Part shown: positions 31,658 through 57,906 of the stretch, piece after piece | Layout of the letters: every line of letters begins with the position of its first letter | How positions within the stretch are numbered: the stretch's first letter is position 1 | Source: Psammoneis japonica | Taxonomy: Eukaryota | Length of the DNA stretch: 64,000 nucleotides | Assembly: GCA_008632985.1 (NCBI GenBank) | Contig: QPGO01000030.1 | Coordinates: 495,135-559,134, forward strand | Direction of reading: 5' to 3' | Position numbers and translations under genes: made by a program | Notes under the pieces: generated by a model | Databases searched by the model: none | What the model saw: the letters and a program-made list of their open reading frames with translations, nothing else | What the model was told of the DNA's origin: nothing

Positions 31658-31748
31658 GATCCAAAGTGATGGTGCTATTATACCGAGAGAAGATTTTAGA
31701 TTTTTGGATTTGAACTGTGTTGTTGTGTGTTGTGTGTTGGCAGCAGTT

Positions 31749-36098: not shown

Positions 36099-36324
36099 AT
36101 TGCTGGAGGGCACCTGTGGATGGATCTGGATTGAAAATGATGCTGCTGTCCACAAGTCATCAACAAAACCAAACTGCGGCACAGCACAAAACTTTGCAAC
36201 AATTTGGAACGAAACACTTCACCGGAATGGTCTGTGGATTTCTTTGTCAGCAGCTTCGTTGTCTCCAGAGTCTGCGCAAATGTGCGAAAATGTGGGTGCG
36301 TTTCATTGTTGAGTTCAATCCTTC

Positions 36325-38900
36325 AACCTTCAATTGTAAATTTACAATGCTCAGCTCAATCCTCAAACATGTGCGGATTTGACGGACAGGTCGGGTTGCA
36401 CGCTTCATGCTCATCCACGCAGAAGAAATCCACTGAACTGATCTTTTGCAAAGTGCGATGCAACTTGTTGCAATTCTTCACACGAGACTGCAAGCAGAGC
36501 GGCATGAAACCGACTTCCTTGTTTGCCAGCTCGTGGAGTGAAGCTTTGTCCATTTGTTGAGCAAGTGAAAGCACTTGCCAAGAAGCACCTTCTGTGTCAA
36601 CACGAGATCAACACGCTCAGCAATGGATTCGTCGATTGAGCCTAGAATCGCTTGTTCTTCCCTCGATTTTTTGCCCATCTGGCAGAAAGGACGACTGCGC
36701 TTGCAAAACTTAATGGACAAGTTCCAGGTCCAGGTGTGACCTCACACTGCTGAACTGTGACATCGACAGTTTTTTGAATCACGTCGCATGTCGCGCGCGC
36801 AGATTTCTGTGTGATTTTTTCGACATTTTGTGTCATTTTGTGGCACACATGTTGAGCGATCCGTCCAACAACTTTTGACATTTTTTGTTACAGTGCGATT
36901 CCATGATGTCTTAAGAATCGCGCAGGGCAGGCGCATTTGCAAAAACACCAAGTGGCAAGAGGCACAATTGCACCACAAACTTGGCCACTTGTTTGATGTT
37001 GAAGACAAACACATCCATTGATTTGGTTCTCGTCCTGCGGAGCTCGCACGTAGAATTCTGCAGGCCCAATGTCACATGGAGTCCCACCTGGGGCTGGAAC
37101 CCATCAATGCGGAATTGCTCGTTGTCCTCAAGGCACTGGCAGAACTCACGATCCTTTTGAGCCAAGATGCTGACTTTTTCAAAATGCAGGTCGTCGCTCG
37201 GAATGCCTTCAATCAATGCACTCACAGCAGCACGACAACACGTGTCCAATCTGCATGCCTTCCGAACTTGAACTGCCTCTTGAAGAATTCCTGATTCTTT
37301 GCATCGTCGATTTCATCAATGAAAGCTGGGACGTCTTGGGTGGGCATGGTTGAAACAGCGAAGGGGGAAATTGTGCGCGAATGTTGGTGGTCGGCGGTGT
37401 GTGTGTTGGTTTTTTGCCTTTTGTTCCGGCATTCTGCTGCTGCTTGTGCTGGCAGCAGTGGGAGTGGCAACTGCCGACAGCTGCTCTCCAGCAGTGGAGA
37501 GCTTCTTTTAGCAGCAGAGAGTGCATGCACCACAGGGGCAGTCGCAGAAACTGTCTCGCACAGCATGCAGATGCAGCACTTCTGTTGATGTGCGCGTGTT
37601 CGATCGCAGGCAGAAACCATGCATGTCTGCACCAAACAAAATCCGGGCACGACAGCACAATGCGCGATGATTCACCACATGCAGAAATCAATGAAAATCT
37701 GTGCCAAACCAGTTCTGATGGGAAGCTCACAGGTCAACTCCACACAAACTGTTCTCATGCAACCAAAGACATCAGTGCCATCTTGACAAAGACCACTCGT
37801 TGTTTGCCTTCGCAGAAGGAAGACATGGAAAAATTGAGGGATCAAGTCCACCATTGTGACAACCGCTGGACCAGGAAGGAGAAAGACAAGCATTGGAGTT
37901 CACTCAAGCGGGGTCACCAGCACTCGTTTCAGTCCGGTAAAAAACAACGGAATGTTGGCTGCACTCCTTGTCCATCCATTCAACAGATCTGCACGGAACC
38001 ACTTTGGAGGGACCCAAAAAATCTGGCTTGCCTTCCGGAATCCCACCGTCCAGTGGGGCTCAAAAAGGATCTCATGATCAGCAGAAATGCCTTGTTGGTG
38101 AAAGCTGCATGCCTCCGCAGGTGCAACATCTGCGCTGCTGTCATTGACCCTGTTGGCAAAGAACATTTGACTGTCAAAAAGTGAGTGTGCTGTCATCAGG
38201 GTTCTCAACTGCATGCCCCAAACTGTCTTTTCTTGCCCCTTTTCCATTGGTGTGTTCCTCACTCTGTTTGTTTTGTGGCAGGTGTGAGGATTGCCACATG
38301 CACTTGCTTGAAAAAATCTTGTTTGCCTTCCACCCATGCAGCAAGTGGTCTGGTGTGAATCCCAACGAAGCTGCTCTTGCTGTCAAGCGCGCCATTGCGG
38401 AAAAGCACTCTGTGCCGGAGGTTGCTTCCGTGATTGATGGTGATCACACTGCGGACGACAATGATTTGAGTGCAGAGCACAATTGCAAAACTGCGGAGTG
38501 CTCCAGCAGGGTTTTGACTGCTCGTTTGCGTCGTTTTCAAGAAGTCGAACTTGGCGCCATGGCGTTCATTCTTGTCACAGATCATCATCGCAAGATGATT
38601 CACGAGCATGACTCTGCACGCGCCACGAACGAGTTCCGAGCTCTTTGCAAATGGCACAAGGAGGCTGCGGAACAGCATGCTCAGACTTTGAATGTCGACG
38701 AGCCAGAGACATTTGCAGCTCCTCTCCGTGACCCCAGCCGCGGTGGTTGCCACTTCAATCACTTGGGTTTCCTTGGAGCTGTTCTCCCTCATTGGGAGCA
38801 CAAATCTGTTGAGCTCAATCTCCCGGAAATCACAATGGAGAGTCCATTCCTCCAGGATCTCTCTCGCACCCATGCGAGCCAGTTGCTTTTCAGGAGACAG
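36325..38900. pseudogene. Copy A of a duplicated unit with two divergent orphan genes (minus ~36350-37345; plus ~37760-38900 with intron 38181-38281)
   Basis: Aligns block by block with 40340-42530; frameshifts and Tyr loss; gtgagt...gcag intron conserved in both copies. Confidence 0.7.
36715..37105. mobile_element. ~400-bp MITE-like insertion in copy A
   Basis: Absent from copy B at the matching site (~40728); imperfect inverted ends gttccaggtccaggtgtgac / gtcccacctggggctggaac. Confidence 0.5.
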
Positions 38901-39354
38901 CAGTGCACCAAAAAAGAAACGGCTGGCCTCCACAACGTCTGCTGCAGATCAACGGTTGTTCGTTGCTTGTTTGTGTTGCATTGGGAGCAGCACATCGTGC
39001 TCTTTGTGGCAGCAACACATGCAATGGACAACATGGCATCAGCTCTGCTCGTGCCCATCAGCATCGTGACATTTTGCCGTTTGCATCTGCTGGAGCAGAG
39101 GCTGCAACGGCCAAATTGAACGCAAAGGGGAGTTGAGAGATTTCTGTTCGAGGTTGTCGTTCTGTTGGCAACTCAATTTTAAGCCAGTCGAGCTGTCTCT
39201 TTCTCTGTGGTTTCATCTTTTCTCTGGAGTCTGTCATGCATTCTGGCGGTGGCGTGCCTTCGCAACAAAGACGTGCATGTGCATGACTTCCGTCCAGCCC
39301 CCCGCACGCCAGTTCGACTTTTCATGTGTTTTTTTTTCAGTTGAATGTGCAAAC

Positions 39355-39684
39355 GCATCTGTGCCCGAGTTGGTCTAAGGGGGCAGACCCAAAAAATGAA
39401 GTTGTGATTCCTTGTGGAAAACAGTGGCAGCAAAAGTGCATCCGCAGGGATTCGAACCCTGGCGTGCGAATGCAGCAGTGCTTGAAACTGCCCCCATCTG
39501 TGCCCGAGTTGGTCCAAGGGGGCAGACCCAAAAAATAAAGTTGGGATTCCTTGTGGAAAACAGTGGCAGCAAAAGTGCATCCGCAGGGATTCGAACCCTG
39601 GCGTACGAATGCAGCAGTGCCCGAGTTGGTCTGTAAGGGGGCAGACCCAAAAAATAAAGTTGTGGAAAACAGTGGCAGCAAAAG
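39355..39684. repeat. Tandem array of tRNA-Leu fragments: plus-strand 5' halves alternating with minus-strand 3' parts
   Basis: Three gtgcccgagttggtc..aagggggcagaccc units, each followed by a shared spacer ending ggaaaacagtggcagcaaaa and then gtgcatccgcagggattcgaaccctgg. Confidence 0.8.
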
Positions 39685-39767
39685 TGCATCCACAGGGATT
39701 CGAACCCTGGCGTATAAATACAGTTGTGCTTGAAACAACCCCCATAGACCAACTCGGGCATAGATGC
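39685..39767 (-). tRNA. trnL-CAA: tRNA-Leu(CAA), apparently intact
   Basis: GCATCTA/TGGATGC acceptor stem plus discriminator A; D-arm CCCGAGTTGGTCTATGGG; GTTGT-TTCAAGC-ACAAC anticodon arm; GTA-TTTA-TAC variable arm; CAGGG-TTCGAAT-CCCTG T-arm; TTTT terminator immediately downstream. Confidence 0.85.
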
Positions 39768-40339
39768 TTGTACCTTTCGGATGGAAAATAGATGATAAAT
39801 ACAACATGTTTGTTTTATGTGTCTGTTCCCCGCCCGCCCCGCGCGCCCGCCCCAGACGCACGGTACAGTGCTGTACGTACGACAACGCATGCTCGTCATA
39901 CGGCAGTTAAATCAGACAGCCAACGAGGCACGGCGACACCCTTGTTGCGACGTTGATGAAACGAAGCGAAACTGACCCATTTCGAACGAGAAGTGTGCCG
40001 CACACATCCAATCAGCTACAACCACGAGACGAAAATCCACTCTTGTGGGACACTTCAAGCCGAACACTGGGCCGAAGGTGGTTGAGAGATGTCGCGACTC
40101 CCTTTTGTGTTTCATTTGGCTGTTGCAGCCAGACAATGTCACTGGGACGGGCTGTGTGTGGATTTGGTGGCGAAAGCAGCTGTGTTGCCTGCTCTGCGGT
40201 GCTCTCGCTGGATTGGCTTTGACTCTCAAAGACAGCCGTTCTAGCGACCCAAACAAGAAGAAGCTGCACGCATCAATTCAGGCCGGGGGGTTGGCAGAGC
40301 ATGCCAAGCTTCTGTTTCATTGGTGAAGCCAAAAATCCT

Positions 40340-42530
40340 CTGACCTTCAATTGTAAATTTATGGTGCTCAGCTCAATCCTCGAACATGTGCAGATTTGAC
40401 GGACAGGTCGGGTTGCGCGCTTCGTGCTCACTCATGGAGAAGAAATCCATTGAACTGATCTTTTCCCACACACGACACAACTTGTTGTAATTCTTCATGC
40501 GTGGCTGCAAGCAGATTGGCATGAAACCGATTTCCTTGTCTGCCAGCTCGTGGAGTGAAGTTTTGTCCGTTTCGTTGAGCAAGCGAAAGCATTTGCCAAG
40601 AAGCACCTTCTGCGTCAACACGAGATCAACACGTTTGGTGATGGATTTGTTGATTGAGTCTAGAATCGCTTGTTCTTCTTTTGACTTTTTGCCCATCTTG
40701 TAGAAAGGACGACTGCGCTTGCAGAACTGAGCGCAGAATTGCTCGTCATCCTTCAGGTGTTGGCAGAACTCACGATCCTTTTCAGCCAAGATGACGGCTT
40801 TCTCAAAATGCGGGTCGTCACTCGGAACGCCTTCAGTTGACACACGCACAGCAGCACGACAGCATGTTGTCCAATCCACATGCCTTCCAAACTTGAGCTG
40901 GTGCTCAAAGAATTCCTGGTTGAAAGGTGAGACATCTTGGGCGGGCATGGCAGTCTAACAATGACAGAAGCAGGGGGGGTTGTGTGCGGATGTCTTGTGT
41001 TGTCTGGTGTGAGGTGTGTTGGTGTTGTCTTCTTGCACTGTTCTGGGCTTTCAGCTTGTCGCAGAAAACATGTCGATGATCTCGCATGTAGAAATCAATG
41101 GAAATCTTCACTGAAAAGATCCTGGTGCGCCAGCGGAGTTTTTGCGTGTTTGACTGCATGTAGAAACACATGGCTGAGCATGGAGCAAAAGATCCTGGTG
41201 CGCCAGCAGAGTTTTTACGTGTTCGATTGTGTGTAGAAACACCCATCTGAGCATGGAGCAAAAGATCCTGGCACGCCAGTGCAGACATTGCGTGATCGCA
41301 TGTAGGGTCGGTCACACAGCCCCCTGCAACAATGCCACATTCGTCGTTCTCACTTCTCACGAGCATCACATCGGCAGCGATTCTCAAGCCAACCAAAGAC
41401 ATCAATGCCATTGTGACAAAGACGACGCGTTTTTCGCCGACGCCTTCGCAGAAGGAAGCTGTGGAGAACTTGAGGGATCAAGTCCACTGCTGTGACAATC
41501 ATTGGACAAAGAAGGAGAAAGATGCGCATTGGAGTGCACTCAAGCGTGATCACCAGCACACATTTCATTCTGGGAAAAAGCAACGCAATGGGAACTGCAC
41601 TCTGCATCCATCCATTCAACAGATCTGCGAGGAACCACTGTGGAGGGACCCAAAAAATCTAGCTTGCCTTGCGGAGTCTCATCGTCCAGTGGGGCTCAAA
41701 AAGGATCTCACGATCAGCAGAAATGCCGCATCGGCAAAAACCTCTTGTCAGTCAAGGTGCAACATTTGCTGCGCCCTCATTGCTCCTGCACGCAGTGAAT
41801 GCTTTGCCATCAAAAAGTGAGTGTGATGTCATCAGAGAAGTGTGCGATCTAAACTTTCTTTTGTCACCCATTGCTCATTGATTCTTTCTTTGTTCTGTTT
41901 GTTTTGCGGCAGGTGCAACGATTGCTCCATGCATTTGCTTGAAAAAATCTCACTCGCCTTCAGTCCAGACAGCCCATGTTCTGATGTGCACATGAATCCC
42001 AACGAAGCTGCTCTTGCCATCAAGCTCGCCATTGTGAAAAACCACTCTGTGTTGGAGGTTGCTGCCGTGATTGATGGCGATCGCAAAACGGACGACAACG
42101 ATCCAAGCATGAAGTGCAATCGCAAAACAGCAGAGCACACAAGCAAGGTGTTCAAGACTCATGAGCGTCATTTTCAAGAAATCATGCTCGGCGACATGGT
42201 GTTTGTTCTTGTCACAGATCATCGTCACAAGACGATTCGGGAACGTGATTCTGCGCGTGCCATGAAAGAGTTCCGCGCTCTTCATAAATCGCGCAAGGAG
42301 GCTACGGAACGGCATGCTCAAAAATTGAATGTCGATGAGCTGGAGGCATTTGCGGCTCCTCTCCGTGACCCCAACCATGGTGGTCGCAACTTCAACCACT
42401 TGGGCTTCCTTTGAGCTGTTCTCCCTCATTGGGAGAGCAAATCTGATGAGCTCAATCTCCCAGAAATCACAATGGAGAGTCCATTCCTCCAGGATCTCTC
42501 TCGCACCTGCGCAAACCAGTTGCTTCAGGG
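40340..42530. pseudogene. Copy B of the duplicated orphan-gene unit
   Basis: ORFs 40373-40948(-), 41332-41820(+) and 41842-42414(+) are homologous to copy A; this copy still keeps some Tyr (FYKMG, KNYNK). Confidence 0.7.
41085..41300. repeat. Three imperfect ~73-bp tandem repeats
   Basis: tgtagaaa...aaaagatcctgg(t/c)(g/a)cgccag recurs at ~41087, ~41159 and ~41232. Confidence 0.75.
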
Positions 42531-44569
42531 GACAGCAACAAAGAACGCACAGGAAAATGATCAGCTTTGTTGAAGAGAATGTTTTTGTAATGTCTGGATT
42601 AGATCATTGTAAACACAAACAAAACGTGCAACTTCGATCGCCGGGAGACTTGATCAATGTCCTTCAGACTGTGCTGCGCTTTAGCCAAACCGTGCAGTGT
42701 GACGCGTTGAGTGCATCTGGGACAGCTTCGCTCAATTGCATCAAGCAGGCACATTGTGCAAGAAAACCAATGTCTAAAACCAATGTTCAAAGAACTTGCT
42801 AAAACATGATCTCTTGGATCTGACACAGATCTGAGTTGAAATGCCTTTCCCGATGCTTCGCTGCCTCCAGCCTCTCTTCCGATGAATGCACCACAGCTGT
42901 CCAATGCAAGCTGGGGAGAATCAAAGGTGGACCCAGCCTTGCTGGAGACGGCAGCAATGAGAGAACCAGCTTCTTTCTTGCCTTTTCAAGACGGGAAAAA
43001 CATGAGAAAAAAGGAAACGTGAAAAAGCCCCATCGCTTGGTTTTGATGTGGTTCTGAACTCAAATGAGGGAAGCAAATGAATGACAAAAAGGCCACATCC
43101 TTCATCACAATGAGATGTGAGAACTTTCACTGAGATGTGATTCCAGCCCTGGGCATTTGAAAAAGCAAGCAAGAGAGAGAAGAGGGGTGCAGGGCTCCAT
43201 GTGTGACAGTGCCCATGCTTGCCTCGTGCGCTCCATCCCAAGGTGGGAATTCTTGGACATTTGTCAATTCCGTGTGTGAGCTCTGCAGCTCATGCAATGG
43301 GTGGAATCTTTGGCACAAAAACAAACAACATTTTTGCAGCGCTGCCCCAGCTTCAAAAATTTTGAAAATGAGCGACTGTCTGTGCACCCAGTGTGCTCAA
43401 AGAGAGAGCGAGTGCAAAGGAAAGCAGAGCAAATCACGAAAAGTGAAAATTGTGAGATTGGATTTTGCTCCACAATTTCAGGTTTCTTTGAATGAGTTCT
43501 CAATGGCCCAAATTGCTTGCTCTGCTTCTGCAAACCAAAAAGGCCTTTCGGGAAATCCAGCAGCAACAAGAGCAGCAGATTGCCTGGGTGCAATCAAAGC
43601 TGACATCTCATCTGTCAACATCATTGATCAATTCTTGCACTTGCAATTTTAGACATCCAACCAATTCTGTGCAATTGTTCTGACCTTTGTGCGCATCCAT
43701 GACTTCCATGTGATTGACACTCTGCTTGACAGTGCGTGCTGCACTCGCCTCCCCAATTGCACATTAGGGTCTCTTGTCAAATGGAGCCATTCAACAGACA
43801 TTGACAGCATCAACAACCTTGCTCCTGGTGTGCATTGTGCATGATGCACATGCAAAATTCAGTGGGGGGTCTTGCAGAATGACACCCAAAAGAAAGCACA
43901 TTGTCCTGGCAGCTGCTGCTCACCTTCCAGATGCTGCAAGCTGCGCAATCCTTCAACCATGCCTGTCAGCAGGGCCACCTTGAGCAGCTGCTCAGAGGCA
44001 CAGGGTGCCAGCAAGAAAGGCCTTGTAAAATGAGCGAAATGCACATTTTGACAAACTTCAATGTTGCTGAACAATGCTCACAGGATGTGTTGCCAATGCA
44101 TGCTCCACACCAGCACATTTCCTGCTGACACACAACAAATGATTCTTGCTGTGAAATTGTGCGCAGCTGGTCCAGCATGTTGGGTGGTGTTGGGTGTTGA
44201 AACCACAAAAGACACGTGGCAAATTGGCAAGAAATCAAAGCAGTGTGAGCTTGCAGCCACCGTGAGCTCAATGAATCCTGCCACCAGCTTTTGCATGTCC
44301 CCACCCACCATTTCAGTCTGTGCAAAATCAAAACAATTCAGCACATTTTCAAGTTTCCAGTGAGTCCTGGAGCTGTTTGTTGTCAAGCTCAGCAAAAACC
44401 CACTCTTGTGGTGAATTTTTTATTGTTGTGCTGTCCCCAGCACCCCATGGCTTGTTGCAGCACAATTCTGTTGCAAAGACAGAGCCCACACCAAAGCTCT
44501 GGTGACAGTCATTTCTGTGCAGCAAAACACAAAAAAGATCAGCACCACCTCATCTTGTGTTTCATGGCT

Positions 44570-45420
44570 GCACCACTGACTGCTGCTCCAACCACCCAAA
44601 ACCTTCACTCGCTCCTGCATCTCAGACCAAAAGTTGCCCCCACCACCACTTTGCCAACAATGAAAGCCTGTCAAGATCTGAGAACACAAACTTGGGCAGC
44701 TCAAGCATGACCTCAATGAGCCCAGCTGCTTTGCTGATGTGCACCTGTCAATGACAATGGAGGATGCAACCCAAGGCAGGATCATGCACGTCAGATCCAA
44801 CTGGATGCCAGCACCCTGCCAACTCACCAACAGCACTCAATGCCAGTGCAGCATGTTTCAAGCAAGATTGCCCAAGCTCTTTGCAAAATGCCAAGGCCCT
44901 CAGCTGGGCTTGCAAACAAGACAACTTTGTTGTCACCCAATGTGACAAAAACCTGGGCCCTGTCATCATGATGGGAAAAACTGAGCATGCCAAGATGGCG
45001 TCTTGAGATCACCTCAACAGCCCCAATGCATGCCAAAGAAAACTTGACAGTGGCTGGCCAACAATGCACAAAGCAAGCCTGTCTTCTGCAGAGCACAACA
45101 AGCACCTGAAGAGCCAGGTTGATGCTTCCTGAAGACACACCCTTCCCCATCTTCCACCTTGTGCTGAAGGCACACAAATCCCTGCCAATGTGAGCATGCT
45201 TCCTGAAGACACACCCTTCCCCATCTTCCACCTTGTGCTGAAGGCACACAAATCCCTGCCAATGTGAGCATGACCTGTCTTCTCTGTGAGTGATGGTTTG
45301 CTTGGGAACATGAGTCAAGGACAAGCTCCAACAAGCTGCTTGGCCCCAATGACCACAGCACTTCAAGACAAGCTCTTGAGCTGAGACAACAACAACTCAC
45401 CCAAGTGCAAGCTGGCACAC
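44570..45420 (+). mobile_element. Degenerate Penelope-like RT N-terminal fragment with an exact 74-bp tandem duplication (~45122-45270)
   Basis: QCDKNLGPVIM and PFPIFHLVLKAHK peptides match 54360-54620 of the longer copy. Confidence 0.75.
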
Positions 45421-46620
45421 CATCCATCATCAGAACAATCAATTGCGCCATCAAATGAGTGTGTCATGTCATGAACACACTTCACAAAACATTCCACATG
45501 ATCATGACAAAATTTCTCTTTCTCATCTTCACTCTGTCCGGATCCTTGATCAGATCTGCAATCCAACTGTTGACTGCCTTGGGAGTCAAATCAAAGAACT
45601 CCATTTTTCTGCAGAACCGCTTGTTGCTTCAATTTCCATGCAGGCAAAAATTTGTGGTGGAAGAACACCACTGACTTCCTCTGTGCATCACAAATGGCAC
45701 CATCATTGTCCCTCATGAGCCCACAATGGGTCATGATGACATCACGATCGGGGCTCTCAACATGTGCTTCACAAGGGCACCACATGCCCCATTCTTGTCC
45801 ATGCTGCAGGCAGGCAAGCAAACACTCAACTTTCCACATGGGTCAAAAAGGTCATTCTTGCTCTCAGGGTCAACTCAACCCATTGCCCAATGATCCAGTG
45901 ATGCACTGATCTTTGAAATGCCCTTCATTGCCAGGCTGGCCATGGATGACAACATGACATGTGCCTTGCTTGAGGCTTGAATTCCAGCATTTTGCCAGCA
46001 TTCTTTGGTCTTGTGAGCTTCACTTTCTTGATGCTTTGTTTTGTGTGTGTTCCCCTCCTCCAATCATTGTGAATGGACAACACTGGCACAGCAGACATGC
46101 TCTCTGATGTTTCAAAGCTCTGCTGTGCCATCTCTTCATGCATTTCTGTCAATGACTTGCATCTGCCCCACCACAGCAGGCCTTGCCACATGTCTTGATG
46201 ACTCTGGCTCCTCCCCCAATGGGAAGGTGCTGCCACATCTGGGTCTTCTGTCTTCATCTCCTTGACAGAGTCCAACACCTGCTGCAGGTCCAGGGTGTCT
46301 TGGTGGAGGCATGGACCAAGAGTCAGCATCTTCTGGTCACTCTCGTTCCACCTCTTCAACTCTTCCATCACTCTGTCACAATCTTTGTCTGTCATCTCTC
46401 ACTTTCTTGGGTCACTCAAACCCACAAGTCTCTCTTGGCAATCTGGCCAACAGTTTGGTGGCCACACCTTTGTCACCATGTTGTGAAACAAACAGAGCTC
46501 ACATGAGTTGTTGCCACTTGTGGCTGACATTTGTTCACAACAACAAATTCTGACTGGTTGGGCCATTTGGCTTGACACCCTTTCTGAGTTGCAGGGATCT
46601 TTCACCTGCTGCATGCATGA
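45420..46620 (-). mobile_element. Highly degenerate second Ty1/copia RT-RNaseH fragment
   Basis: Broken peptides reminiscent of SHDPK..MEEL, IGQ.QW and W.SK.Q..V motifs of diatom CoDi elements; weak similarity only. Confidence 0.35.
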
Positions 46621-46689
46621 GAGCTCTCATCTGATGTGTCACAAATCACAGAAAATGCTCCTGTCATGGAGTTGACAGCCCACATCAGC

Positions 46690-49600
46690 TTGTCTAAACT
46701 TTCAAAGCTTCTGGCCCTGCAATGGCTCAGTCACGAAGTCTCCAAGCGCGCCATTGGCAGGACAGTGTTGTGCTCTTAAGGTGCCCTTCTTGATTTGATT
46801 GGCAACAAAGAAATGCCAAATGACAAGTGCTCTGGACTGCTTGCCAGCACTCTTGCACCCATTGGTCTCAAGCAGTGTGGCACTCTTGTTGTCCCAATGC
46901 AGGACATTCTTGTCAATGAGGTGTCCGTTTTGCTCCATGAACAACTTTGTCCATGGCATCACAGCCATGGCATCATTGACTCCAACAAGTTCAGCTTGTG
47001 TGCTGCTTCAGATGTTGATCTTCTGGTGCTTCAACACAGCTTGCAATGCTCCATTGCCCATGGTCATGACTCCTCTGGTGTGGCTCTTGAAATCATCAAG
47101 ATGCGCTGCAAACAGTGATCCAAGCACCACTTGACAACTCAGAGGTCCTTTGCACTTGGCACAGAAACATCATTTCATGTCCGGCTCATGTGCTTGAGAG
47201 ACAACAGACTGGCTTTCTCCAGTCTTCATTGGCAGGTCCCCTGATGCATGATGCTGCATGAGGCGCACATCTGTGCAGCCTCTCTTGGGTGCAAGCAGTC
47301 TTTTGGCCACCCATGCATGGAATGCTTGTGCGCTCTCGGCTGGCAGTCTAGCGCCGCTGGTGTCAAATGGGTTCTCACCTGCTGGTGTCATGGCAGTGTC
47401 CATGCCCTGGATCTTTTCAACAAGCTGATCAATCATCTTGCTGCCAATGCAGCTGGTCATGTCAACCTTCACCTTGCCCTTGCAGCTGAAGTGCAGGGTC
47501 ACACCAAGACAGCCATGTCTTTTCCTTTGCATGGCAACAATGGCTTCACCATGGCTTCCACGCATCTTGTTTGGCCAGCTTGAAAATTTGTCATTTGCTT
47601 TTGAGTTCTTGTGGCTTGACATCAGGTCATCCACATGGAATCAGATGGTGAGCTGCTCGCCATTTGCAGAATTGCCTGTGCTGCAGCAGAGCCACAATCA
47701 ACACACTGCAAATGGCTCAGATGACTTGGACACAAAGGACTCACTTGCCCTTCTCCAGGGGTGGTCCACATGGATTGTGATCAATGCTCAATGGCATGTC
47801 AACCAGCTGTCCTGCAATCTTCATCACAATCTGGTCTTTGCCCTCCTCAGGCTCCAAAATCATCATCTGCACAAATGTGTTTGGTGCATTGACACTCATG
47901 ATGTTGCACTCTTTGTCAGCATCAATGACTTCCATCATCAGTGTTCCTTCTGAGGATGCTGCAGGGCTGGCTGACTCATCTTTGTCCAGCCATTCTTGTG
48001 TTGGTTTCCCATTTCAAAATCTTTTGCACTTTTGTGCAACTGTCTCATTTCTTTGTTGGAAACAATCAAGACTGCCATTGCCTTGGTCCTCCAAGTCAGA
48101 GTCATGTCCTTGACTGACAATGGCGCAGAGCACACTCAGTTGTGCAGTTCTTTCATTTCTTTCTCTGGGGCATCACCCCCCTGTGGCCAAATGATGCTTC
48201 AAGGCCTTCATGCAGCAGATGTTGTTGGGCAAATCAAACACCCTTGCCTGGTCAGAGTTGGTTGGCAATCTTGCACATGAAGTGCACTGCATTGCCACAT
48301 CACAAGCAAGCAATGTCATCCTCTGGATGGAGGCTCATGTTTGTTTGCAAATGATGGCAGTGTTTGAGCTTGTTTTGTTCTTGCTCCACTTCTTTGTTGG
48401 CATCTGCCACTCCTGCAAATTGAACTTTCCTTTTTTGCATTTGCGTGGTCTCATGTTGAAAGATGTGTCACATGGTTGCTCCACAGGCATTGCTCCACCA
48501 GGCACACCACTTGCTTCTTCCACCAATCTTTCTCCTTCCCATCCATTGTCCTCTTCATTGGGTTGGTCAGCATCTTGTGGTGGTTCTGTGGTTCCTTTGC
48601 ATTCCTTGTTGTCCTCACAGTCTTCATTTTTGTCACTTCCGCAGTTTTCATCATCATTTTCTTCTTCTTCTTCTTGGTTGCCATGTGATGTTGATCAGGA
48701 CTGAACCTTCTCTTTCATCTGCTGGAATCTCATTTTCTTCTTTGCGAGCACTCATCATCTGAGTCTGCCTCATCTTCACAATCTTCATCATCAAACTCGG
48801 TTCTTGCATGGCTGGCATCATGATGATCATCTTGTGTCTGCCCTTGCTGTCGCTTTTGTCACTGGTGCTTTGGTTGTTGTCCACTCCTGCAGCCCAGTTG
48901 GTGCTGCATAGATTGTCTCTGCACCAATTGCCCACAAGTTCAAAATCTTTGAAGCCTTGTTTTGTGGCCATCTTCTCAACTGCCTGTGTGTGTGTGTGTG
49001 TGTGTGTGTGTCAAGGCGCAGTTGCAGGGATTCAGTGGCTTGCCCATCTGCAGGTTCACAGTGCAGTGTTCACCCTTGGGCAAATCAAAATGTGGTCACA
49101 AGCATGCGCTGTCAATGTCACGTGCATCCAGAGCATTTGTTGGGTTGTCCTCAATGTGAGAAATCACAAATTCTCTGAACTGGAGCTGGAAGTGTTTGTT
49201 GCAATCAAGGTTCCTTCATTGCACAACAGCGTGTTTGCTGTGAGCATCCAAAATCCCCTCCTTTTGTGGCATGCTCATGCATCATCTTGGGTGTCATTTT
49301 GTGTGGTGCATGGTGCACAGTGGCTCAAGTTTGCTCCTTGATGGTCTGCATGCTCCGCTCACCTTTGGGAACATGCTCTTTTGTGTGAGTGAAAATCAAC
49401 TCCAGATTCACACCTTTGGCAACTTCCCCTGCATTTCCTTGAACTTGGAAAATCACACTCTGTGAAGTCAATCTTGAGTGGGGCCATGTTGTGCTGTCAG
49501 AGAATCATGCTCAGTGCTTCACACACATTGTCATGCTTCTTGGACCTCAGTCTCACTCTCAATTGACATCAGCTGATCGTCTTGTCTGTTGTGCACAGCA

Positions 49601-50920
49601 GCTTGGCACTGCATGCTTCCACAACATCAACGCAGAGGATTGCAGCACCTTTTCTCTCTCCCTCTCACATGTCTCAGGTGGTGTGGCTGTGAAGTTGTTC
49701 TTGCCTCTCATGAGAATTGGTGTGTGTGTGCTTGGTCTTGCCTTTTGGTGCATCCATTGGTTGGCCCCAAAATGGCAACCATCCTGTCCACATCTTCAGG
49801 AGGAGACTGATGGACAAGTTCTTCACCTGGTTGGAATGTAAAAATGACTTGAAATCCCTCACATTGGGTGTTCCAGCCTTGCAACACAGTCTGAGTGCTT
49901 GCTCAGCACGTGCCACCTCCCTCTTGGTGCAGCCCATGGAACTCTGTTCCACGATCAGAGCTGCAGTTCCAGGTGCACTTCTGTGCTTCTTGTTGGTCTG
50001 TTTCTTCATCTTCTTTGTCTTCTTCTTCAATGGCATGCTCGCATGTGTCTCACTTTCTTGGAGATCTTTTGTGCAGTCAAAAAACTCCTGGCTTGGCACA
50101 AAGGTGTGTGGCCCAATGTTGTTCACTTTGAACACCACAACCTGCTTGCTGGTTTTTTCTTGTCCAGCAGCCTGGACTCATTTGCCACTCAGTCATCATG
50201 AGTTGTGTGGTGCTTGCTCTTCACATCCTTTGGACTGAGAATGTTTGCTGCCATGTTCTGTGATCTGAGTTTCACACACCCCTGTCCACTGTCCGGGCAT
50301 GGCACAGGCTTTGTTCAAGGCATCCACTCCTGTGTCAGTGGACAGATCAGCTTCAGGGATTTGGCAAGTGTGTGGAGCAGGTGTTGACCTCTCATTGAGT
50401 TGAATGCAAGGAGTTGCATTGGCTTCAACAGCTTGATGGGATTGTCCCCAATCATGCTTGAGCAACTGGGACTGCCTTGCACTCTCTGCTTCATTTGCTT
50501 GGTGCAGCAGTCTTGTTCTCTTCAAGCTTCTTCACTTCATCATTGCAGTCATGGCCTGTGGCTCAGCCTTGCGCCAGCACCTCAGCTCTTTTTCTTCTTG
50601 CTGTCTTGTCTCCAGCTCCTTGTGGAGTCTGACCTTGACCCATCAGTTGGTGATTTTGTCTCTTGGGTGCACCCAAGGTGGGTTTCTCTTTGCTGAAGCC
50701 TTTGCAAATCCACCATGACAGGAGCTTCAACATCTTCTTTTCAATGTGTCTGGGGGGTCTCCTCTGTGTTTCTGCCATCTGGATGCTCCGGCACAATGAC
50801 CTTGACATTGATTGGGCCACCAACCCAACCAAGATCTTTTGCTGTGAATTTTGTGAATGTCAGCCACAACTTTTGCTCCAAGGCCTGTGCGTCCACACCA
50901 CCATCTGTGAAAAAGCTGTG
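46690..50920 (-). mobile_element. Degenerate Ty1/copia (CoDi-type) LTR retrotransposon internal region: gag, pre-integrase, integrase, RT, RNaseH
   Basis: RNaseH WTKLFMEQNGH...DNKSATLLETNG..SAGK.SR...HFF...HCP..GDFVTEPLQG; RT DDLMSSH...HGCLGVTLHFS.KGKVKVDM and VIDA...PNTFVQ; pre-integrase GCTKREVARAEQA..L...GTP..DFK...KGKT; domain order fits copia. No LTRs found. Confidence 0.85.
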
Positions 50921-50929
50921 AATCTCTGT

Positions 50930-52094
50930 GACTGTGCAAACCGCCACTCTCTTCCCACATGCTGTCTGGCCTCATGGTGGGCATGTGCATTTTTGGCTCA
51001 AAAGCCTCTGCTCCAGCCTCAACAACACAAAATTGAAGACGAAGCTTCCACGCCTTCATTTGCAAGTGTGTGGCTGCAAGCCCAGCAATGAGCTGCAGCT
51101 GCTGCTTCAATTTTGGCAATGCACCCAGAGCAGATGCACCCCCAGCATCCCCCCGCCCCCCCCTCCATGTGCACGTGCCACTTCACCCAAACAACCTGCC
51201 ATCCAGCAAACTTTGAAAGCTTTGGAAGGGAGACATGGCCCACATCTTCTTGCACATCCCATGTCATCTGTCACCTGGCCAAATGACCCACCATCAAGCA
51301 AGCTGCAGAAGCTCCAGAAAGTGACAATGGCCAACCCTCCCTTCTCACAACCCCTCTCAAACCTCCACAATCATGTGCAACAATGTGCTGAACTTGATTG
51401 CATGATTGCCTGCTGTGCAGTTGCTTGCATGACCTTGGAGATTTGCTCTCACACTGCAACCTTCACATCTCCCATGCCCCCCCCCCCCCCCCCCCCCCCC
51501 ACTTTCATCCTGCGATCTCACTCCAAGGCTCCCACCTTCATGCCACCCTCTGCAAAAAAAAAAGTTTGTTCCACCCCACTCAGCTCATCCACCTCTGGAG
51601 CACACACTGGCCTGATCATGGGCATCCTCTTCCACTTCAAAAACATTTGCTCCAACACTGCCGATGCAAAAGTGAAAACAAGACCACTCTGCCTTTGACT
51701 TCAAGCTTGAGGCCACAAGCCCAGCAAAATGCAACTGCTCTTCAGAAAGGCACATGTCCTCATCTTTGGCAATGCCACCAGAACAACTCAAAACCCCCAG
51801 CCAAATCCCATCTTCTTGCCCATCCCTTGTCACCCAAATGACCTGCCATCGAGTGAGCTGCAGGAGCTGTGGAAAGGTGCAATGGCTGCTCCTCCCTGCT
51901 CACAATCCCCCTCAAACCTTTGAAATCATGCTCAACAATGCATCAGCCTTGACTGCATCATGATTGTCTGTTGCAGCCAGCACTTGCACAACCTTGGAAA
52001 CCTTCTTTCCTGCTGCAAACTTTGCATCTCCCATGCCCCCCAGTTTCATCCTGTCGGATTGCAAACAGGGTGGCCAGTTTGTTCAAGCAAGAGA

Positions 52095-52128
<34 letters not shown>

Positions 52129-52130
52129 AA
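50930..52130 (+). mobile_element. Two tandem 3'-end fragments of the Penelope-like element, the second ending in (GA)n
   Basis: Homologous to 55300-55800 (HP.G..TGLIMG, NDPPSSELQ.LW, NLGNLLS); poly-C at ~51476-51500; GA/GACA tract 52090-52130. Confidence 0.8.
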
Positions 52131-52232
52131 GACTGCGTGGTGAACTGATTTAAAAAAAAACAACAACTGATCAAGTCTGCTTGTCTGTCCTCCACCAGTT
52201 GGATCTTTTAATGCAACAACCTCAACCACATC

Positions 52233-52296
52233 AACAACAGCAGCCAGCCACTGATGAAGCAACTGTGAAAGTCTCTCTCCTGACTTCAGCCAACAG
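52233..52296 (+). ncRNA. Minimal type I hammerhead ribozyme, degenerate (copy 1)
   Basis: CTGATGA at 52251, GAAA at 52267, GTC/GAC stem III, TT at the cleavage position. Confidence 0.55.
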
Positions 52297-55200
52297 CTGG
52301 ACAAATGTCTGAACCAGCAGCTCCACCTTGGCTGCTTGCATTTCTTGTTTGTCACATTTGAAGGAAAGTTGGCTTTGAAGTGCCAATTTTGTTTGTTGTG
52401 CCTGCCATTTGCTGAAGCAGTTGGACAAATGTCCGGTCAAGCAGCTCTGCCTTGGCTGCTTGCACCACTGTTGTTTGTCACATTTGACGGAAAATTGGCT
52501 TCACCAATTTTGATCGTTCGTTCAAGAGAGAGTGCAGTGACAACAATGGATGCTGCAACCAAGACCACCAACCCAAAACGTGCGCATTTCAATTCAACTG
52601 CGGTGAACCCAGCCAACCAGCAAACAAGGACATCCCTTGCCACCACCACCCAATGCATCAGGGACCACATCGTGTGGCTCCAACCAGAAACAGCCACCAT
52701 CCTCGAGAAGCTTGCTGTCAACCAAATCCAATTGCAAGCCAAGGCCTGTGACAAGGCCTTTCATGTCCAACGGATGGAAAAAGATGAGGAGTTCACCCCC
52801 CGCTCAACCCAAATCAACTTTGAATTTCAAATGTCAAAAACCGCTGAACAGAGCCAGGAGTTCTTGGCTCTGCAGGAGGAAACCAACGACCTCATCTCCA
52901 ATGCCCAAAAAGCCTTCAAAAAGCAAGTCATCCAAGCCACCAGGGTTGAACTTCACGTCATCCAAGAAGAAATTTTGGAGTCGTTCGCGAAAGCCACCCG
53001 ACTTGCAACCAAGAGTTTTGCTGTGGCCAACAGCATCACCACACCTGTCGACACCGCAGTGGTCACCCTGCTTGACTGCTGCCATGAAATGCTGCCAAAG
53101 TGCATCAAGGTCAAGAACCTCAATGTGTCCCTCACCAAATGCAAGGCAGCAAATGCTGTTGCTGACCTGCCACAACCGCTGGTTGCCCCTGCCGCTCGAC
53201 AATCCCAAACTCAAGATGACCGAGCCAGCGACTCCTTGTTCCTTGCACAAGAAGCAGTGCCAGCACCTGCCACTCTGCAAATCACTGCTGCACAACAGAA
53301 AATCGAGACTGAACTCAGCAAGATCTTCCGGGCGCTTGAATGCATCTTCATGTCTCCCTGGACCACCTGCCTGGCAACCAAACAGAAACATGACATCAGC
53401 CTCCAATTGAAAAAACTCAACAAGGAACACTTCGATGCCAAGGCCACCAAGAGCGCCAACATGGAAATTGATGGCAAAGCCACAGTTGACCCTCCCACTC
53501 TCCAAGAGCTCATCTGCAAGGAGACCGAGAAAAATGCCAAAAAGCTCTCCCAACAGGTCAACTCGCTTGCTCAATGCCTCAAGTCCATCAAAGCACAGCA
53601 GTCAAACAACCTGAGGGGCCAAAACTGCACCGCCGGCGCCTCATCACAAAAAGAAAAAGGCAAAGGTGCCCCATCGGATCGCACGAGGAAACAACACCCT
53701 CAATGCGACCGTGAAGCCGACAATGCCGACAACAACACCGCCAGCACAAACAAAAACAATTGACACGACTCCAAATCGAAACAGCAATCAAAAAAGAAAC
53801 AGCAGCGCTCCAACAACAGTTGGAACAGGCACCAGAGGCAACAACTCACTGAATCCATCGCACATGCGGATTCGTCACCAACCCATCTCACACAATCCAA
53901 CACAACGCCTGCACCCACCTGTGACGCATGCCCGCCTGGTGCTGCTTCAACAGGCCCTCACACCTTGCCTTCCATGACTGCACCACCACCAAACAACCTC
54001 CAATCACTGCTTGGCCTTAGTTTGAAATTTGTCCCTGCTCCGCGCTTCACCAACAACGGGAAGTCCTCCAAGATCCAAGAACAAACACTCGGAAGATTCA
54101 AACAAGACCTTGACAAACGAGATTTCTTCGCCAACGCACCTGTCAATGACGATGACAGAGGTCACAATCCCAGGATGCACCTCTGTTCCAACTGGACGCC
54201 CCCCTCCCTGGAAACTCACCAACATTGTCACATGCTGACACACAACCTTTGAATCACAAGTCACCAACCTCCTTGTGAAACGCCGTGGCAGAACCAACCT
54301 GCTGCCCCACCAACAACGTGCCCTGGCCTTTCTTCACAAACAAGACAACTTCACAATGGCCCAATGCGACAAGAACCTGGGGCCGGCCATCATCAAAAAG
54401 ACCGAATGTGCAAAGATGGCATTTTGCAACCATCTCAACGGCATGAATGCGCGCCAATTTTTGAGCGAGTTTGCATCAAAAAACTCCTCAATGACTGGCT
54501 CAAGGAACACAAAAATGGCCTCACACACTCCAATGGAATGCAAGTGCCTGAAACATTGCCTTGAAGCTAACAAAGACCCACCCCCCATCTTCCACCTTGC
54601 TCTGAAGGTGCACAAAGCCCCTCCGCTTTGATCCCGACCGATCGTCTCTGCCAGCGGCAGCCTGCTCTACGGCTCAGGCATCTGGGTGGATGACAAGCTC
54701 CAGAAAGTTGCGCGCCGCCAACAACCATGCTTCAAGAGCTCTGTGGACCTGAAACAAGCACTCGTCCAAATGGAGGTGCCATCGAACTGCCTCCTCTTCA
54801 CATCCGATGCCGAGGCCTGCCACTCCAATGTGCCCACCAAAAAAACACTTCGATTGATTGCTTCCCACCTCCGATGTCATGAACACGAACATGACGACAT
54901 GCCAACGGATGCCCTTGTCAAAGCCCTCCAAATTGTGATGGAAAATGATGCACTCACCTTCGGAGACACTGCCTGGCACAAGCGCAACGGAGCTGCCATG
55001 GGCACACCACCCGCCCCTCCATGTGCCACTTTGCACTGCGCACTTCACGAAGACATGCTCCTGGAGGAGTTCAGCTCCCAGCTTTTTCATTGCAAACAAT
55101 TCATTGATGACGTCTTCAGCATTTGGCACATTGCTGACACTGCCGCTGATGCCGCCACCTGGGAAGCATTTGCCTCCAGGCTTGATGACTTCAATGTCAC

Positions 55201-55797
55201 ATGGATCACGAGCCCACAAAGCCACCAAGTTAACTTCATGGACCTGACGATCTCACTCCAAGGCCCCAACATTCACACTGCCCTCTACAAAAGAGAAATG
55301 AACCTCTGCATGTGTGTCCCACCTCACTCAGCTCACCCGCCTGGAGCACTCACCGGCCTCATCATGGGCATGCTTCGCCGCTTTAAAAACCTGTGCTCCC
55401 AAAAATGAACTTGCTCCACCTCCGACTGCAAGCTGGAGGCTGCAAACCTGGCAAACTGCAGCCGCTCTTCCAAAAAGCGCGTGACCTCATCTTTGGCAAT
55501 GCTGCCAGAACAGCAGAAGAGCCCCAGTCAAACCCAATTTTCCTGCACCTTCCCCATCACCCAAACAACCCACCATCAAGTGAACTGCAGAAATTGTGGA
55601 AAGGTGCAGTGGCCAACCCTCCCTGCTCACAGCCCCTCTCAAACCTTCGAAGCCACGCCTGACAACGCATCGGCCTTGACCGCCTGATTGTCTGCTGTGG
55701 TCGCTCCCACAACCTTGGAAATCTCCTTTCATGCCGCACACTCCGAGTCTCCCATGGCACCCCAGTTTTGTCCTGTCGGGTTACAAACATGGAGGCC

Positions 55798-55838
<41 letters not shown>

Positions 55839-55937
55839 AACTTGATTTGAGTTCAACTTGATTTGAATTGAACAGATTCAATCAACCTGTCTGTCCTTCT
55901 TTGGATCTTTTTAATGCAACAACGCCCACCGCACGTC

Positions 55938-56008
55938 AACAACAACAGCCGGCTGCTGATGAAGCCACCACGAAAGTCTTGTTCTCCTGACTTCGGCCAA
56001 TGTTGTTG
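55938..56008 (+). ncRNA. Minimal type I hammerhead ribozyme (copy 2, best preserved)
   Basis: GGCTG-CTGATGA-AG(CCACCA)C-GAAA-GTC..GAC-TT-CGGCC; stem I is extended by caacaaca/tgttgttg. Confidence 0.7.
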
Positions 56009-56128
56009 TGCCTGCCATTCACTGAAACAGTTGGACAAACATCCAATTAAGTGGCTCTGCCTCAGCCACTTGCACTGCTGTTGTTTGTCACCTTTGACAG
56101 AAAATTGGCTTTGCCAATTTTGATCATT

Positions 56129-56169
<41 letters not shown>

Positions 56170-56263
56170 CAGAGAGAGAGAGATGGTGATTTGATTCAAA
56201 TCATTCCAATCAACTCATCTGTCCTCCTTTGGATCATTTCAGTTCAACAATGCCCACCATGTG

Positions 56264-56334
56264 AACAACAGCAGCCAGCCACTGATGAAGCCACCATGAA
56301 AGTCTCATGCTCCTGACTCTGGCCAACATTGTTG
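56264..56334 (+). ncRNA. Minimal type I hammerhead ribozyme (copy 3)
   Basis: GCCA-CTGATGA...GAAA-GTC..GAC-TC-TGGC, with a paired stem I and a CUC cleavage triplet. Confidence 0.65.
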
Positions 56335-56450
56335 TGCCTGCTGTTTGCCAAAACAGTTGGACAAACATCCAATCAAGCAGCTCTGCCTCAGCTGCCAGCA
56401 TCATTTGTTTGTCACATTTGACAGAAAATTGGCTTCACCAGTTTTGATTG

Positions 56451-56488
<38 letters not shown>

Positions 56489-56499
56489 GGGGAAGACAG

Positions 56500-57245
56500 A
56501 CAGATCATCATGGGCACATGCTGTTCCAACTCCAAAACCTTTGCTCCAATCCACAGGATGCCGGAGCCAAGATGAAGCTGCAGTGCAGTTGCTTGCAAGC
56601 CTGCGGACACAAACCCAACCAACTGCAACCAATTTTCCATGAAGCACGCAACCTGATTTTTGGAAATGCAGCCAGAACAGCAGCACCCCAGTCCAACCCA
56701 ATCTTTCTCCACATGCCCTTCCATCTGAACGACCTGCCTTCAAATGAACTTCAAAAAAATTGGAAAAGTGCTGTGTCCCAGCCACCCTCCCTGCTCACAA
56801 CCACTCTTCCACGGACCTTTGCAACTGTGCATGATGATGCATTGGCCCAGCCCACATGATTGCATGCTGCAGCTGTGCATGCAACCTTGGGAACTTGCTG
56901 TCACACCACAAGCTTGTGTGTCCTGTGGCCCCCCAGTTTTGTCCCGCCGGATTGCAGGTGTGGGAAGGCCACTGCTGCAAGAGAGAGAGAGAGAGAGACA
57001 GAGAGAGACAGAGAGTGATCAACCAGCTGTGGATTTGAAAACCAGTCATTCAAATTCACCCATCTGTCCTCCCTGCAGCAACAGCTGCACCTCGGATCTT
57101 TTTGACAGAAGAGCTTCAGCCACCACAGTCAACAACAGCAGCCAGTTGCTGATGAAGCCACCACAAAAGTCTTGCTCCCAACTTTGGCCAGTGCCACTGT
57201 GCTTGCCATTTGCTGAACAGCTGGACAAACGTCCAAATCTTTTCA
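56500..57245 (+). mobile_element. Further Penelope-like 3' fragment, (GA)n tract and pLTR module with a broken hammerhead (CTGATGA at 57149, GAAA mutated)
   Basis: LQACGHKPNQLQPIF...NLIFGNAAR homology to the long copy; GA tract ~56980-57016. Confidence 0.75.
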
Positions 57246-57906
57246 GCGCAACAACCTCTGCACACTTGTGTTGGCGCTCTCTCCCCCCCCCTGTGCGCCT
57301 CATCTCAGAGCCCCGGTGGCCATGCTGACACAAACAAGCAGCACGAGGACAATGCACACCATTTGAAAAAAGGGGGGGCTGCTTCAAATGCTTTTTTATT
57401 CAAGCACAATGCTCTGCCTCTCTTGTCATGTTGGCGGGGCGTTGTGCCGAGAATCATTCAACTCATTTCCCGCTGGCTCTTTTTTCAAGTTTGTCTTTTT
57501 AAGTTGAGAGTGAAAGAGCCCAGTCAGTGAAGAAAGGAGAGGCAGCAACTTGCCTCATGACCCACGCGGAAGCTGCACAAGAGATGCCACCTGTCTCATC
57601 CATCAAAGTGGAGGTGGGACGGCCGGGAACCAGCAACCTGCAGCAAGGAGCGAGAACAGGCGCAAATGATGTGAAACAGAATCCACCACCACACGTCAGT
57701 CGTGTTTTGGCTTTTTTGGAAGGCGGCGCCACATCATGGATCGTGCATGGCCACATCCGGCAGACCTGACTGACTGACTCATGATTCATGATGTCCGTCA
57801 CCGAACCGCTGCCAACGAAGTACCTCACCAAATGTACATGGTTGTGAAAAGCGGAGTCATACGGTGTTTTGAGGTTCATAACGCTAGTTGATGCATTACA
57901 GCAATG

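Follow-up and report, generated by a model that had tools for sequence, protein, structure and literature searches.

Conserved tyrosine codons of a probable Penelope-like retroelement record the loss of TpA from a repeat island of the diatom Psammoneis japonica

Why does a reverse transcriptase (RT) frame in a diatom genome have cysteine or histidine where its relatives have tyrosine? The frame belongs to a retroelement, probably Penelope-like, in a stretch of 64,000 nt of Psammoneis japonica DNA (contig QPGO01000030.1), here called the window; all coordinates are window positions. The first-pass annotation of this DNA proposed that the conserved tyrosines of a Penelope RT had been replaced by Cys or His, and that these replacements fix the direction of mutation, TAY becoming TGY or CAY (Y, pyrimidine) by A>G on either strand of TpA. 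It was found that this direction is correct and that TpA has been nearly erased from the whole repeat island in which the element lies.

The five peptides from which the proposal started are all present in one frame (54239-55408, plus strand), the motifs spanning 54590-55339. Their exact coordinates in the RT frame are as follows.

54590-54616, plus strand: FHLALKVHK
54815-54835, plus strand: ACHSNVP
55016-55042, plus strand: PPCATLHCA
55091-55111, plus strand: CKQFIDD
55301-55339, plus strand: NLCMCVPPHSAHP

A protein search with the frame gave 294 relatives with E <= 0.001 among 2103 candidates. The best of them have 47-48% identity (E 2e-106) and a length of about 640 aa, and mostly lie on contigs of 3-4 kb. 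The window frame was aligned with 43 intact relatives (alignment A1), and every conserved column was scored. The tyrosine codons replaced in the motifs are listed below.

54593, plus strand: Tyr>His, CAC; Tyr in 43/43 relatives
54821, plus strand: Tyr>His, CAC; Tyr in 43/43 relatives
55034, plus strand: Tyr>His, CAC; Tyr in 33 and Phe in 8 of 43 relatives
55037, plus strand: Tyr>Cys, TGC; Tyr in 27 and Phe in 14 of 43 relatives
55091, plus strand: Tyr>Cys, TGC; Tyr in 41/43 relatives
55313, plus strand: Tyr>Cys, TGT; Tyr in 43/43 relatives
55022, plus strand: Tyr>Cys, TGT, a weaker case; Tyr in 25, Trp in 16 and Phe in 2 relatives
55286-55288, plus strand: the sole conserved Tyr codon kept as TAC in this copy, in the context CTACA

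Thus, Cys or His stands for a conserved Tyr at 54593, 54821, 55034, 55037, 55091 and 55313, with 55022 as the weaker case. The cysteines at 54818 (TGC; Met in 42/43 relatives) and 55307 (TGC; His in 28, Tyr in 15), which the first-pass annotation may have included, are not in Tyr columns. That intact RTs have Tyr at the motif positions was checked, and held, within the element family's own 43 relatives.

Is Tyr more often substituted than other conserved residues? At columns conserved to at least 90%, all seven Tyr have changed (4 Cys, 2 His, 1 Arg), against 21 of 122 other residues (Fisher p=1.2e-5), as had been predicted. The corresponding counts are 8/8 and 31/153 at columns conserved to at least 80%, and 10/11 and 60/207 at those conserved to at least 60%. 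The relatives do not share the replacing residues: Cys, His or Arg fills only 16 of their 804 cells at Tyr columns (14 His, 2 Cys, no Arg). The composition of the frame is Tyr 0.5%, Cys 4.1% and His 5.6%, against 4.0, 1.5 and 3.6% in the relatives, and the lowest Tyr content among 120 listed relatives is 2.8%. Seven of the eight first-position A>G replacements listed in the frame are preceded by T. The Tyr>Arg change is a CGC codon at 54452, a rare double conversion of TA to CG. An in-frame TGA at 54629 was considered as CGA>TGA, and this was rejected as the column is Lys in 74% of the relatives.

Is this peculiar to one copy of the element? RT copies were located by hmmsearch, in which the six-frame translation of the window was scanned with a profile built from the 43 relatives. 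The frame examined above belongs to the full-length copy A, and three partial copies are also present.

53928-55779, plus strand: open reading frame 2 (ORF2), the TERT-like RT of copy A, profile positions 1-631 of 634
44664-45309, plus strand: partial RT copy B; conserved Tyr codons now CAC, CAT, TGC, CAC
51276-52043, plus strand: partial RT copy C (3' end), lying immediately upstream of copy A; Tyr codons now CAC, TGT, TGC, TGC
56518-56790, plus strand: partial RT copy D (3' end), lying downstream of copy A; Tyr codons now CAC, TTC

In Tyr columns conserved to at least 80%, all 24 cells of the four copies have changed (12 Cys, 10 His, 1 Arg, 1 Phe), while non-Tyr conserved residues have changed in 89 of 344 (p=7.6e-14). 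The control residues named beforehand in the first-pass annotation have changed in 7/23 (Phe), 2/12 (Trp) and 3/15 (Asp) cells. The outcome at a given column differs between the copies. Column 161 is TGT in copy A and CAT in copy B; column 518 is TGC, CAC and CAC across the copies; column 557 is CAT, TGT and TTC. Thus, each copy was changed independently, starting from TAY. Since Tyr is encoded only by TAY, and since TGY and CAY outcomes are nearly equal in number and specific to each copy, TA was the ancestral state and was converted on either strand. CpG decay is unable to give these changes, as the first-pass annotation had argued, and its own mark sits separately at conserved Arg, changed in 15 of 21 cells of the four copies (Gln 6, stop 3, Cys 4, His 1, Gly 1). 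These Arg changes are a separate signature of CpG decay.

Alignments of copy against copy (66-86% identity) contain 1068 mismatches, 723 transitions and 345 transversions. The adjacent double mismatch of CA against TG occurs 131 times in them; the next commonest type occurs 16 times. A general AT>GC bias, as by gene conversion, was also considered. It was rejected since Lys has changed in only 1/11, Asn in 3/15 and Phe in 7/23 cells, and it is also contradicted by the near-equal GC content of tract and flank.

How far does the loss of TpA extend? The edges were taken from position lists of TA and CG, and dinucleotide density was taken from 1-kb bins.

~31700-57820, no strand assigned: TpA-depleted repeat island of ~26 kb; TA is normal to 31697 and again from 57821
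36300-38902 and 40314-42537, plus strand: two unclassified ~4-kb repeat units, 78-86% identical

A 1-kb bin contains 0-8 TA in the island (21 in the bin 39001-40000) and 26-72 in the flanks. The observed/expected ratio (o/e) of TA is 0.00-0.13 over the 26 kb of the island (26 consecutive 1-kb bins), against ~0.5 in the flanks. At 44000-57500, the o/e is 0.02 for TA, 0.24 for CG, 1.94 for TG and 1.64 for CA. Counted per kb, the tract and the flank have 3.3 and 39 TA, 24 and 58 CG, 102 and 70 TG, and 111 and 69 CA, respectively. Summed pyrimidine-purine steps are 241 per kb in the tract and 236 in the flank. This constant total is as expected from TA and CG both going to TG or CA by transitions.

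TA has been lost more completely than CpG. Tract-wide, ~7-8% of the TA remains, compared with 42% of the CpG, and the CpG o/e within the tract is 0.09-0.8; the bin 38001-39000 has no TA but 40 CpG (o/e 0.60). The CpG-depleted core is narrower as well. CpG is normal at 31700-32050 and 57500-57820 despite the loss of TA, so that TA loss spills ~300 bp past the CpG-poor core at both edges. The loss is restricted to the island and this spill-over, and TA is normal in the genes of the flanks (among them GAPDH, LHC and a mitochondrial carrier) in the single window examined. At the right edge, TA depletion ends ~70 bp short of the LHC open frame (57892 onward). At the left edge, it overlaps the end of a 610-aa frame of unknown family (30272-32104, minus strand).

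The island is made of repeats, namely the Penelope-like copies, ~330-nt units bordered by (GA)n, and the two ~4-kb units. In the ~4-kb units, TA is nearly gone while the CpG o/e is still 0.6-0.84. These tandem units differ by 20 CA/TG pairs in 1166 nt, about half of the flank-like TA density, as would be expected if conversion followed duplication and the copies chose independently (an ancestral density is assumed here). None of the 23 other open frames of the tract gave a useful Pfam match, and they offered no further protein family on which the Tyr test could be repeated. At 77 related loci elsewhere, found in metagenomes, the TA o/e is 0.40-0.95 (median 0.64) and CpG is ~1.0. Together with the Tyr content of the 120 relatives, this indicates that TA-poverty is not a trait of the family.

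Long overlapping open frames, up to 501 aa, Cys/His-rich and Tyr-free, occur on both strands at 32000-57500. They result from the TA-free sequence itself, in which TAA and TAG are impossible and only TGA stops are left.

A tRNA gene inside the tract has escaped the loss.

~39530-40020, minus strand: islet of normal TA and normal CpG, consisting of the tRNA gene and its CpG-rich upstream flank
39684-39767, minus strand: tRNA-Leu(CAA) gene, Rfam 48.9 bits
39412-39636, minus strand: two truncated 3'-half tRNA copies; a third at 36017-36102

This spared islet means that the process is not simply regional. Opposite the GTA, TTA and TAC of the gene, the truncated copies read GCA, TCG and either CAC or TAC, respectively. 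Since the variable arm of the gene pairs with itself (GTAT-TT-ATAC), the TA state of the gene is functional and presumably ancestral. The comparison is a small confirmation of the direction that is independent of proteins. The TTA>TCG change is, again, a rare double conversion that needs a second hit at CpA or TpG. Taken with the Tyr>Arg change, it means either that the TpA specificity is not absolute or that two hits arose by another route. The two truncated copies that follow the gene (39330-39930) are spaced at 109 and 139 nt, each with a downstream TTTTGCTGCCACTGTTTTCCACAA tail, and the third lies 3.4 kb from the others. These copies may be a tRNA-derived short interspersed nuclear element or a local tandem duplication. 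Nothing but tRNA was above threshold in the Rfam scan of 31000-58500.

Do the surviving TAs share a context? Outside the tRNA islet, 65 TAs survive. The host flanks were taken as the baseline, assumed to be a proxy for the ancestral TA contexts. A 5' A or a 3' T accompanies only 5 of the 65, whereas 648 of the 1471 flank TAs have one or the other (p=1e-10). By the 3' neighbour, survival per target adenine, relative to the flanks, is 0.007 for T, 0.030 for C, 0.056 for G and 0.099 for A, and these values are nearly alike from the top and the bottom strand. Thus, TAT was converted most readily and TAA least, in the order TAT>TAC>TAG>TAA.

What process may have left this pattern? TA was ancestral, the copies changed independently, both strands were struck alike, and the conversion took place on DNA already resident in the island. 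The reading that I prefer, with a probability of roughly 0.7, is an in-situ, strand-symmetric hypermutation of TpA to TpG or CpA, at the DNA level, in silenced repeats, added to the usual decay of CpG. Repeat copies would first settle in the island, and TpA in the chromosomal DNA would then be converted by A>G on one strand or the other, the strands being struck about equally. Near-complete conversion would turn TAY (Tyr) into TGY (Cys) or CAY (His). On the same DNA, and at a slower pace, methylated CpG would decay to TpG or CpA in the ordinary way. The agent would be a dedicated activity targeted to chromatin or repeats, the simplest candidate being a DNA adenine deaminase that works on TpA; the resulting inosine would read as G, and mobile DNA would be inactivated much as by fungal repeat-induced point mutation (RIP). 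The process may be of the kind that has been seen live in mutation-accumulation lines of the alga Bigelowiella natans.

Several observations weigh against this reading. The evidence is the footprint in a single window, rather than mutations caught as they arise or a known enzyme. In the ORF, 42 of 70 changed conserved positions are explained by neither TA nor CG decay. The Tyr>Arg change at 54452 and the TTA>TCG change require a second change outside the TpA context. The neighbour analysis rests on 65 sites, with the flanks standing in for the ancestral contexts. The DNA run X1, described below, is possibly the assembled sample itself and would then give no independent support. Finally, the copies are old, as seen in their 66-86% identity and in the 345 transversions among 1068 mismatches, so that a merely raised rate over a long time could also saturate.

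This last point leads to the main rival, a slow and passive context-dependent decay, in which heterochromatic methylated repeats of great age would lose TpA through a repair bias or through a modified T or A at TpA. The age of the copies agrees with it, the CpG decay shows long residence under methylation-like conditions, and TA and CpG retention coincide at the tRNA islet. On the other hand, the loss of TA far exceeds that of CpG (7-8% against 42% surviving) and extends ~300 bp into flank with normal CpG, and TpA is not known to decay passively in this way. I regard this explanation as unlikely.

A-to-I editing of the retroelement transcript before reverse transcription, by an ADAR-like enzyme and then fixed in new copies, is far less probable. 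The target is a retroelement, and A>G with a preference for a 5' U is the ADAR signature, as cited in the B. natans preprint (10.64898/2026.01.13.699255). However, editing of the sense strand predicts Cys only, while the copies have 12 Cys and 10 His. Furthermore, TA was also lost from unrelated repeats, the truncated tRNA copies, the (GA)n-bordered units and ~300 bp of flank, and tandem DNA duplicates resolved TA independently. ADARs are known from metazoans.

Are the letters real? An artefact of sequencing or assembly, in which modified bases (5-methylcytosine at CpG, and T or A at TpA) were miscalled, would explain the loss of both TA and CG and the random choice of CA or TG by one idea. 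In the DNA run X1, 64% of the sampled words are present. Its unitigs, 150-300 nt in length at a word depth of 58-92, are identical to the window and need accurate reads. The summed depth reaches ~1900, indicating many paralogues. Paralogue differences in X1 are transitions at 150 of 175 listed places, and linked CA<->TG pairs occur at former Tyr codons, for example at 54821/2 and 55034/5. X1 argues against an artefact of noisy reads, although its library type is unrecorded, which leaves some room for the artefact, and it is not independent if it is the assembled sample. The copies differ by frameshifts, transversions and indels, like genuine old paralogues, while the tRNA islet and the flanks read normally. 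A miscalling artefact is thus about as improbable as editing.

Adaptive avoidance of TA by a functional element, for example as an escape from a TA-reading nuclease or through an effect on mRNA stability, is hardly credible: the long open frames in the TA-free sequence that would suggest it follow from the loss of two of the three possible stop codons, conserved Tyr is lost even at 43/43 columns, frameshifts and TGA stops are present, the copies differ in the residue at the same column, and the relatives have normal TA.

What is the element? Its remaining features are as follows.

52258-53763, plus strand: ORF1 of the full-length copy A, an open frame of 501 aa with no Tyr and 3.6% Cys
53928-54002, 53977-54234, 54197-55408 and 55408-55779, plus strand: frame pieces of ORF2 of copy A
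54365-54385, plus strand: CDKNLGP ("DK" motif), located upstream of the RT core and invariant in 44 sequences
55801-55834, plus strand: (GA)n ending the 3' side of copy A
52091-52108, 56132-56161, 56454-56477 and 56981-56998: other (GA)n, bordering the ~330-nt repeat units

ORF1 matches ORFs upstream of the RT at more than 20 related loci (tblastn, 22 rows; 3e-36 for L022 and 7e-34 for L004). Its single conserved Tyr column is TGC at 53140, a comparison that agrees with the rest but has no power (1/1 changed against 28/60 for other residues, p=0.48). ORF2 of copy A contains frameshifts and in-frame TGA stops, for example at 54629-54631. The 3'-end fragments C and D flank copy A, an arrangement of partial tandems resembling pseudo-long terminal repeats (pseudo-LTRs). 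At the metagenomic locus L001, ORF1 matches lie at both ends (5-739 and 3430-3870) around the RT ORF, as would be seen in a head-to-tail tandem of the element or in an assembly of it that is circularly permuted. At the junction of a repeat unit and copy D (56454-56492), (GA)12 is followed directly by 15 G. Copy B contains an exact (100%) tandem duplication of 74 nt (45122-45269) across FHLVLKAHK; since both units are TA-free, it arose after the hypermutation.

Pfam matched no family to the RT frame at E <= 1 and gave nothing useful for three intact relatives. A GIY-YIG domain was not found by Pfam in the window ORF or in the three relatives, which end after the RT/thumb region. Its absence is compatible only with the endonuclease-deficient clades of Penelope-like elements. 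No hammerhead ribozyme was found by Rfam at E up to 1 in 31000-58500, where hypermutation could have erased one, and telomeric repeats were not seen with the element. A sequence-profile search of the PDB with the RT family gave no relevant match. The five best Foldseek matches in the PDB of the AlphaFold model of the relative P0001 (predicted local distance difference test score 86.4) are TERTs (7trd_A at 5e-9, 6zdq_A, 6zd6, 7qxb_A and 3du5_A), followed by a group II intron RT. Look-alikes of the RT in the Atlas carry DUF8422, HTH_animal and sometimes RVT_1, and among the few with a recorded phylum the commonest is Rotifera.

Endonuclease-deficient Penelope-like elements are described as having a TERT-like RT, a DK(G) motif, pseudo-LTR partial tandems and an association with microsatellites (Craig et al. 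2021, PMC8557442). As far as that description goes, the present element shares the DK motif, the partial tandems, the microsatellite and the lack of GIY-YIG with Athena and Coprina, its RT resembles theirs in being TERT-like to judge from the structure model of a relative, and it differs in having no detected hammerhead ribozyme or telomeric repeats; this is a likeness by described features. The label of a Penelope RT given in the first-pass annotation is reasonable by the DK motif, the partial tandems and the TERT-like fold, though a GIY-YIG domain is absent. To judge from sequence and a structure model, the element is probably a TERT-like, endonuclease-lacking, Penelope-like retroelement with two ORFs.

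The flanks are gene-dense, with long uninterrupted frames for GAPDH, a bromodomain protein, a mitochondrial carrier and a light-harvesting protein (LHC) of the chlorophyll a/c type. The GAPDH frame (862-1941, plus strand) is 85-89% identical to the TPI-GAPDH fusions of Odontella/Trieres, Seminavis and Phaeodactylum. The TPI part of the fusion would be expected upstream of 862, near or past the start of the window. On these sequence matches, the window is diatom nuclear DNA. A dinoflagellate host, with 5-hydroxymethyluracil at TpA, was also considered and was rejected on account of the gene density and scarcity of introns in the flanks and the diatom affinity of the GAPDH.

Is such a process known elsewhere? 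Literature searches for targeted TpA>TpG/CpA hypermutation found one 2026 preprint, on B. natans, and none in diatoms. According to that preprint, in which the word "diatom" is absent, 231 de novo mutations were seen in two integrated viruses of mutation-accumulation lines; 230 of these were A>G/T>C, all at TpA, and the genome contains 124 TpA-poor, CpA+TpG-rich clusters (Mettrop et al., 10.64898/2026.01.13.699255). There, low-TpA coding sequences are enriched for reverse transcriptase and DDE domains, the rate, measured as de novo mutations, is ~1000-fold over the background, and an ADAT-like DNA deaminase is proposed, not shown (10.64898/2026.01.13.699255). As far as this account goes, the two cases have in common TpA>TpG/CpA on either strand, TpA-poor and CpA+TpG-rich clusters, and the striking of mobile or foreign DNA while host genes are spared (here, in one window). 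They differ in the host, a diatom (stramenopile) here and a rhizarian chlorarachniophyte there, and in the target, an island of retroelements and repeats here and insertions of nucleocytoplasmic large DNA viruses (NCLDVs) and virophages there. The TA o/e of ~0.02 is near saturation here, against a Rho of 0.45 reported for the B. natans NCLDV region. Set against that case, CpG decay is superimposed here. A preference for the 3' neighbour is seen here, while the words "trinucleotide" and "context" are not in the main text of the preprint. The mutations were followed in real time in the B. natans lines, whereas the present case is a footprint alone.

RIP of ascomycete fungi changes C to T, mainly at CpA, and creates TpA. 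It is similar in that dinucleotide-specific transitions riddle repeats, leak a few hundred bases into the flanks and wreck frames. Its direction is opposite. In the island, TpA is destroyed and CpA and TpG are enriched, with no TpA excess. The decay of methylated CpG in transposable elements is present in the tract, where conserved Arg went to Gln, Cys, His or stop in 14 of 15 changes, but TGY or CAY cannot arise from TAY in this way, and the loss of TpA outpaced it. ADAR and APOBEC enzymes of animals also cripple mobile elements by deamination-type transitions, and ADAR prefers a 5' U. However, they act on RNA or single-stranded cDNA and leave strand-asymmetric tracts confined to the element, whereas the present pattern is symmetric and island-wide. 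A pattern of the ADAR type would be A>G confined to the element and to its transcribed strand; it was not seen, as the Cys:His ratio is 12:10 and flanks are included.

As far as the searches show, this is a diatom instance of a TpA-erasing hypermutation otherwise described from one unrelated alga. New here are the diatom host, the saturation, the strand symmetry, the spared tRNA gene, the order of the 3' neighbours, the spill-over and a pace faster than CpG decay. The Tyr>Cys/His changes prove the direction from protein, without recourse to outgroup DNA. The finding also exposes an annotation trap, since TA-free DNA is open in all six phases and gives Tyr-free, Cys/His-rich pseudo-proteins that evade Pfam and mislead gene callers. 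The phenomenon is extended to a major, genetically tractable group of phytoplankton, and the symmetry, the neighbour order, the sparing of an RNA polymerase III gene, the ~300-bp spill-over and the outpacing of CpG decay are testable specifics. The changed RT is a detail of a larger, island-wide loss of TpA which, if the preferred reading is true, would be a mutational genome defence against mobile DNA. More tentatively, and less likely than not, diatoms may have an active TpA adenine deaminase that is guided by chromatin or repeats, prefers TAT over TAC, TAG and TAA, and outruns the decay of methylated CpG in mobile DNA. It would be one and the same system as that of Bigelowiella, and thus an old defence across stramenopiles, alveolates and rhizarians, opposite in direction to RIP.

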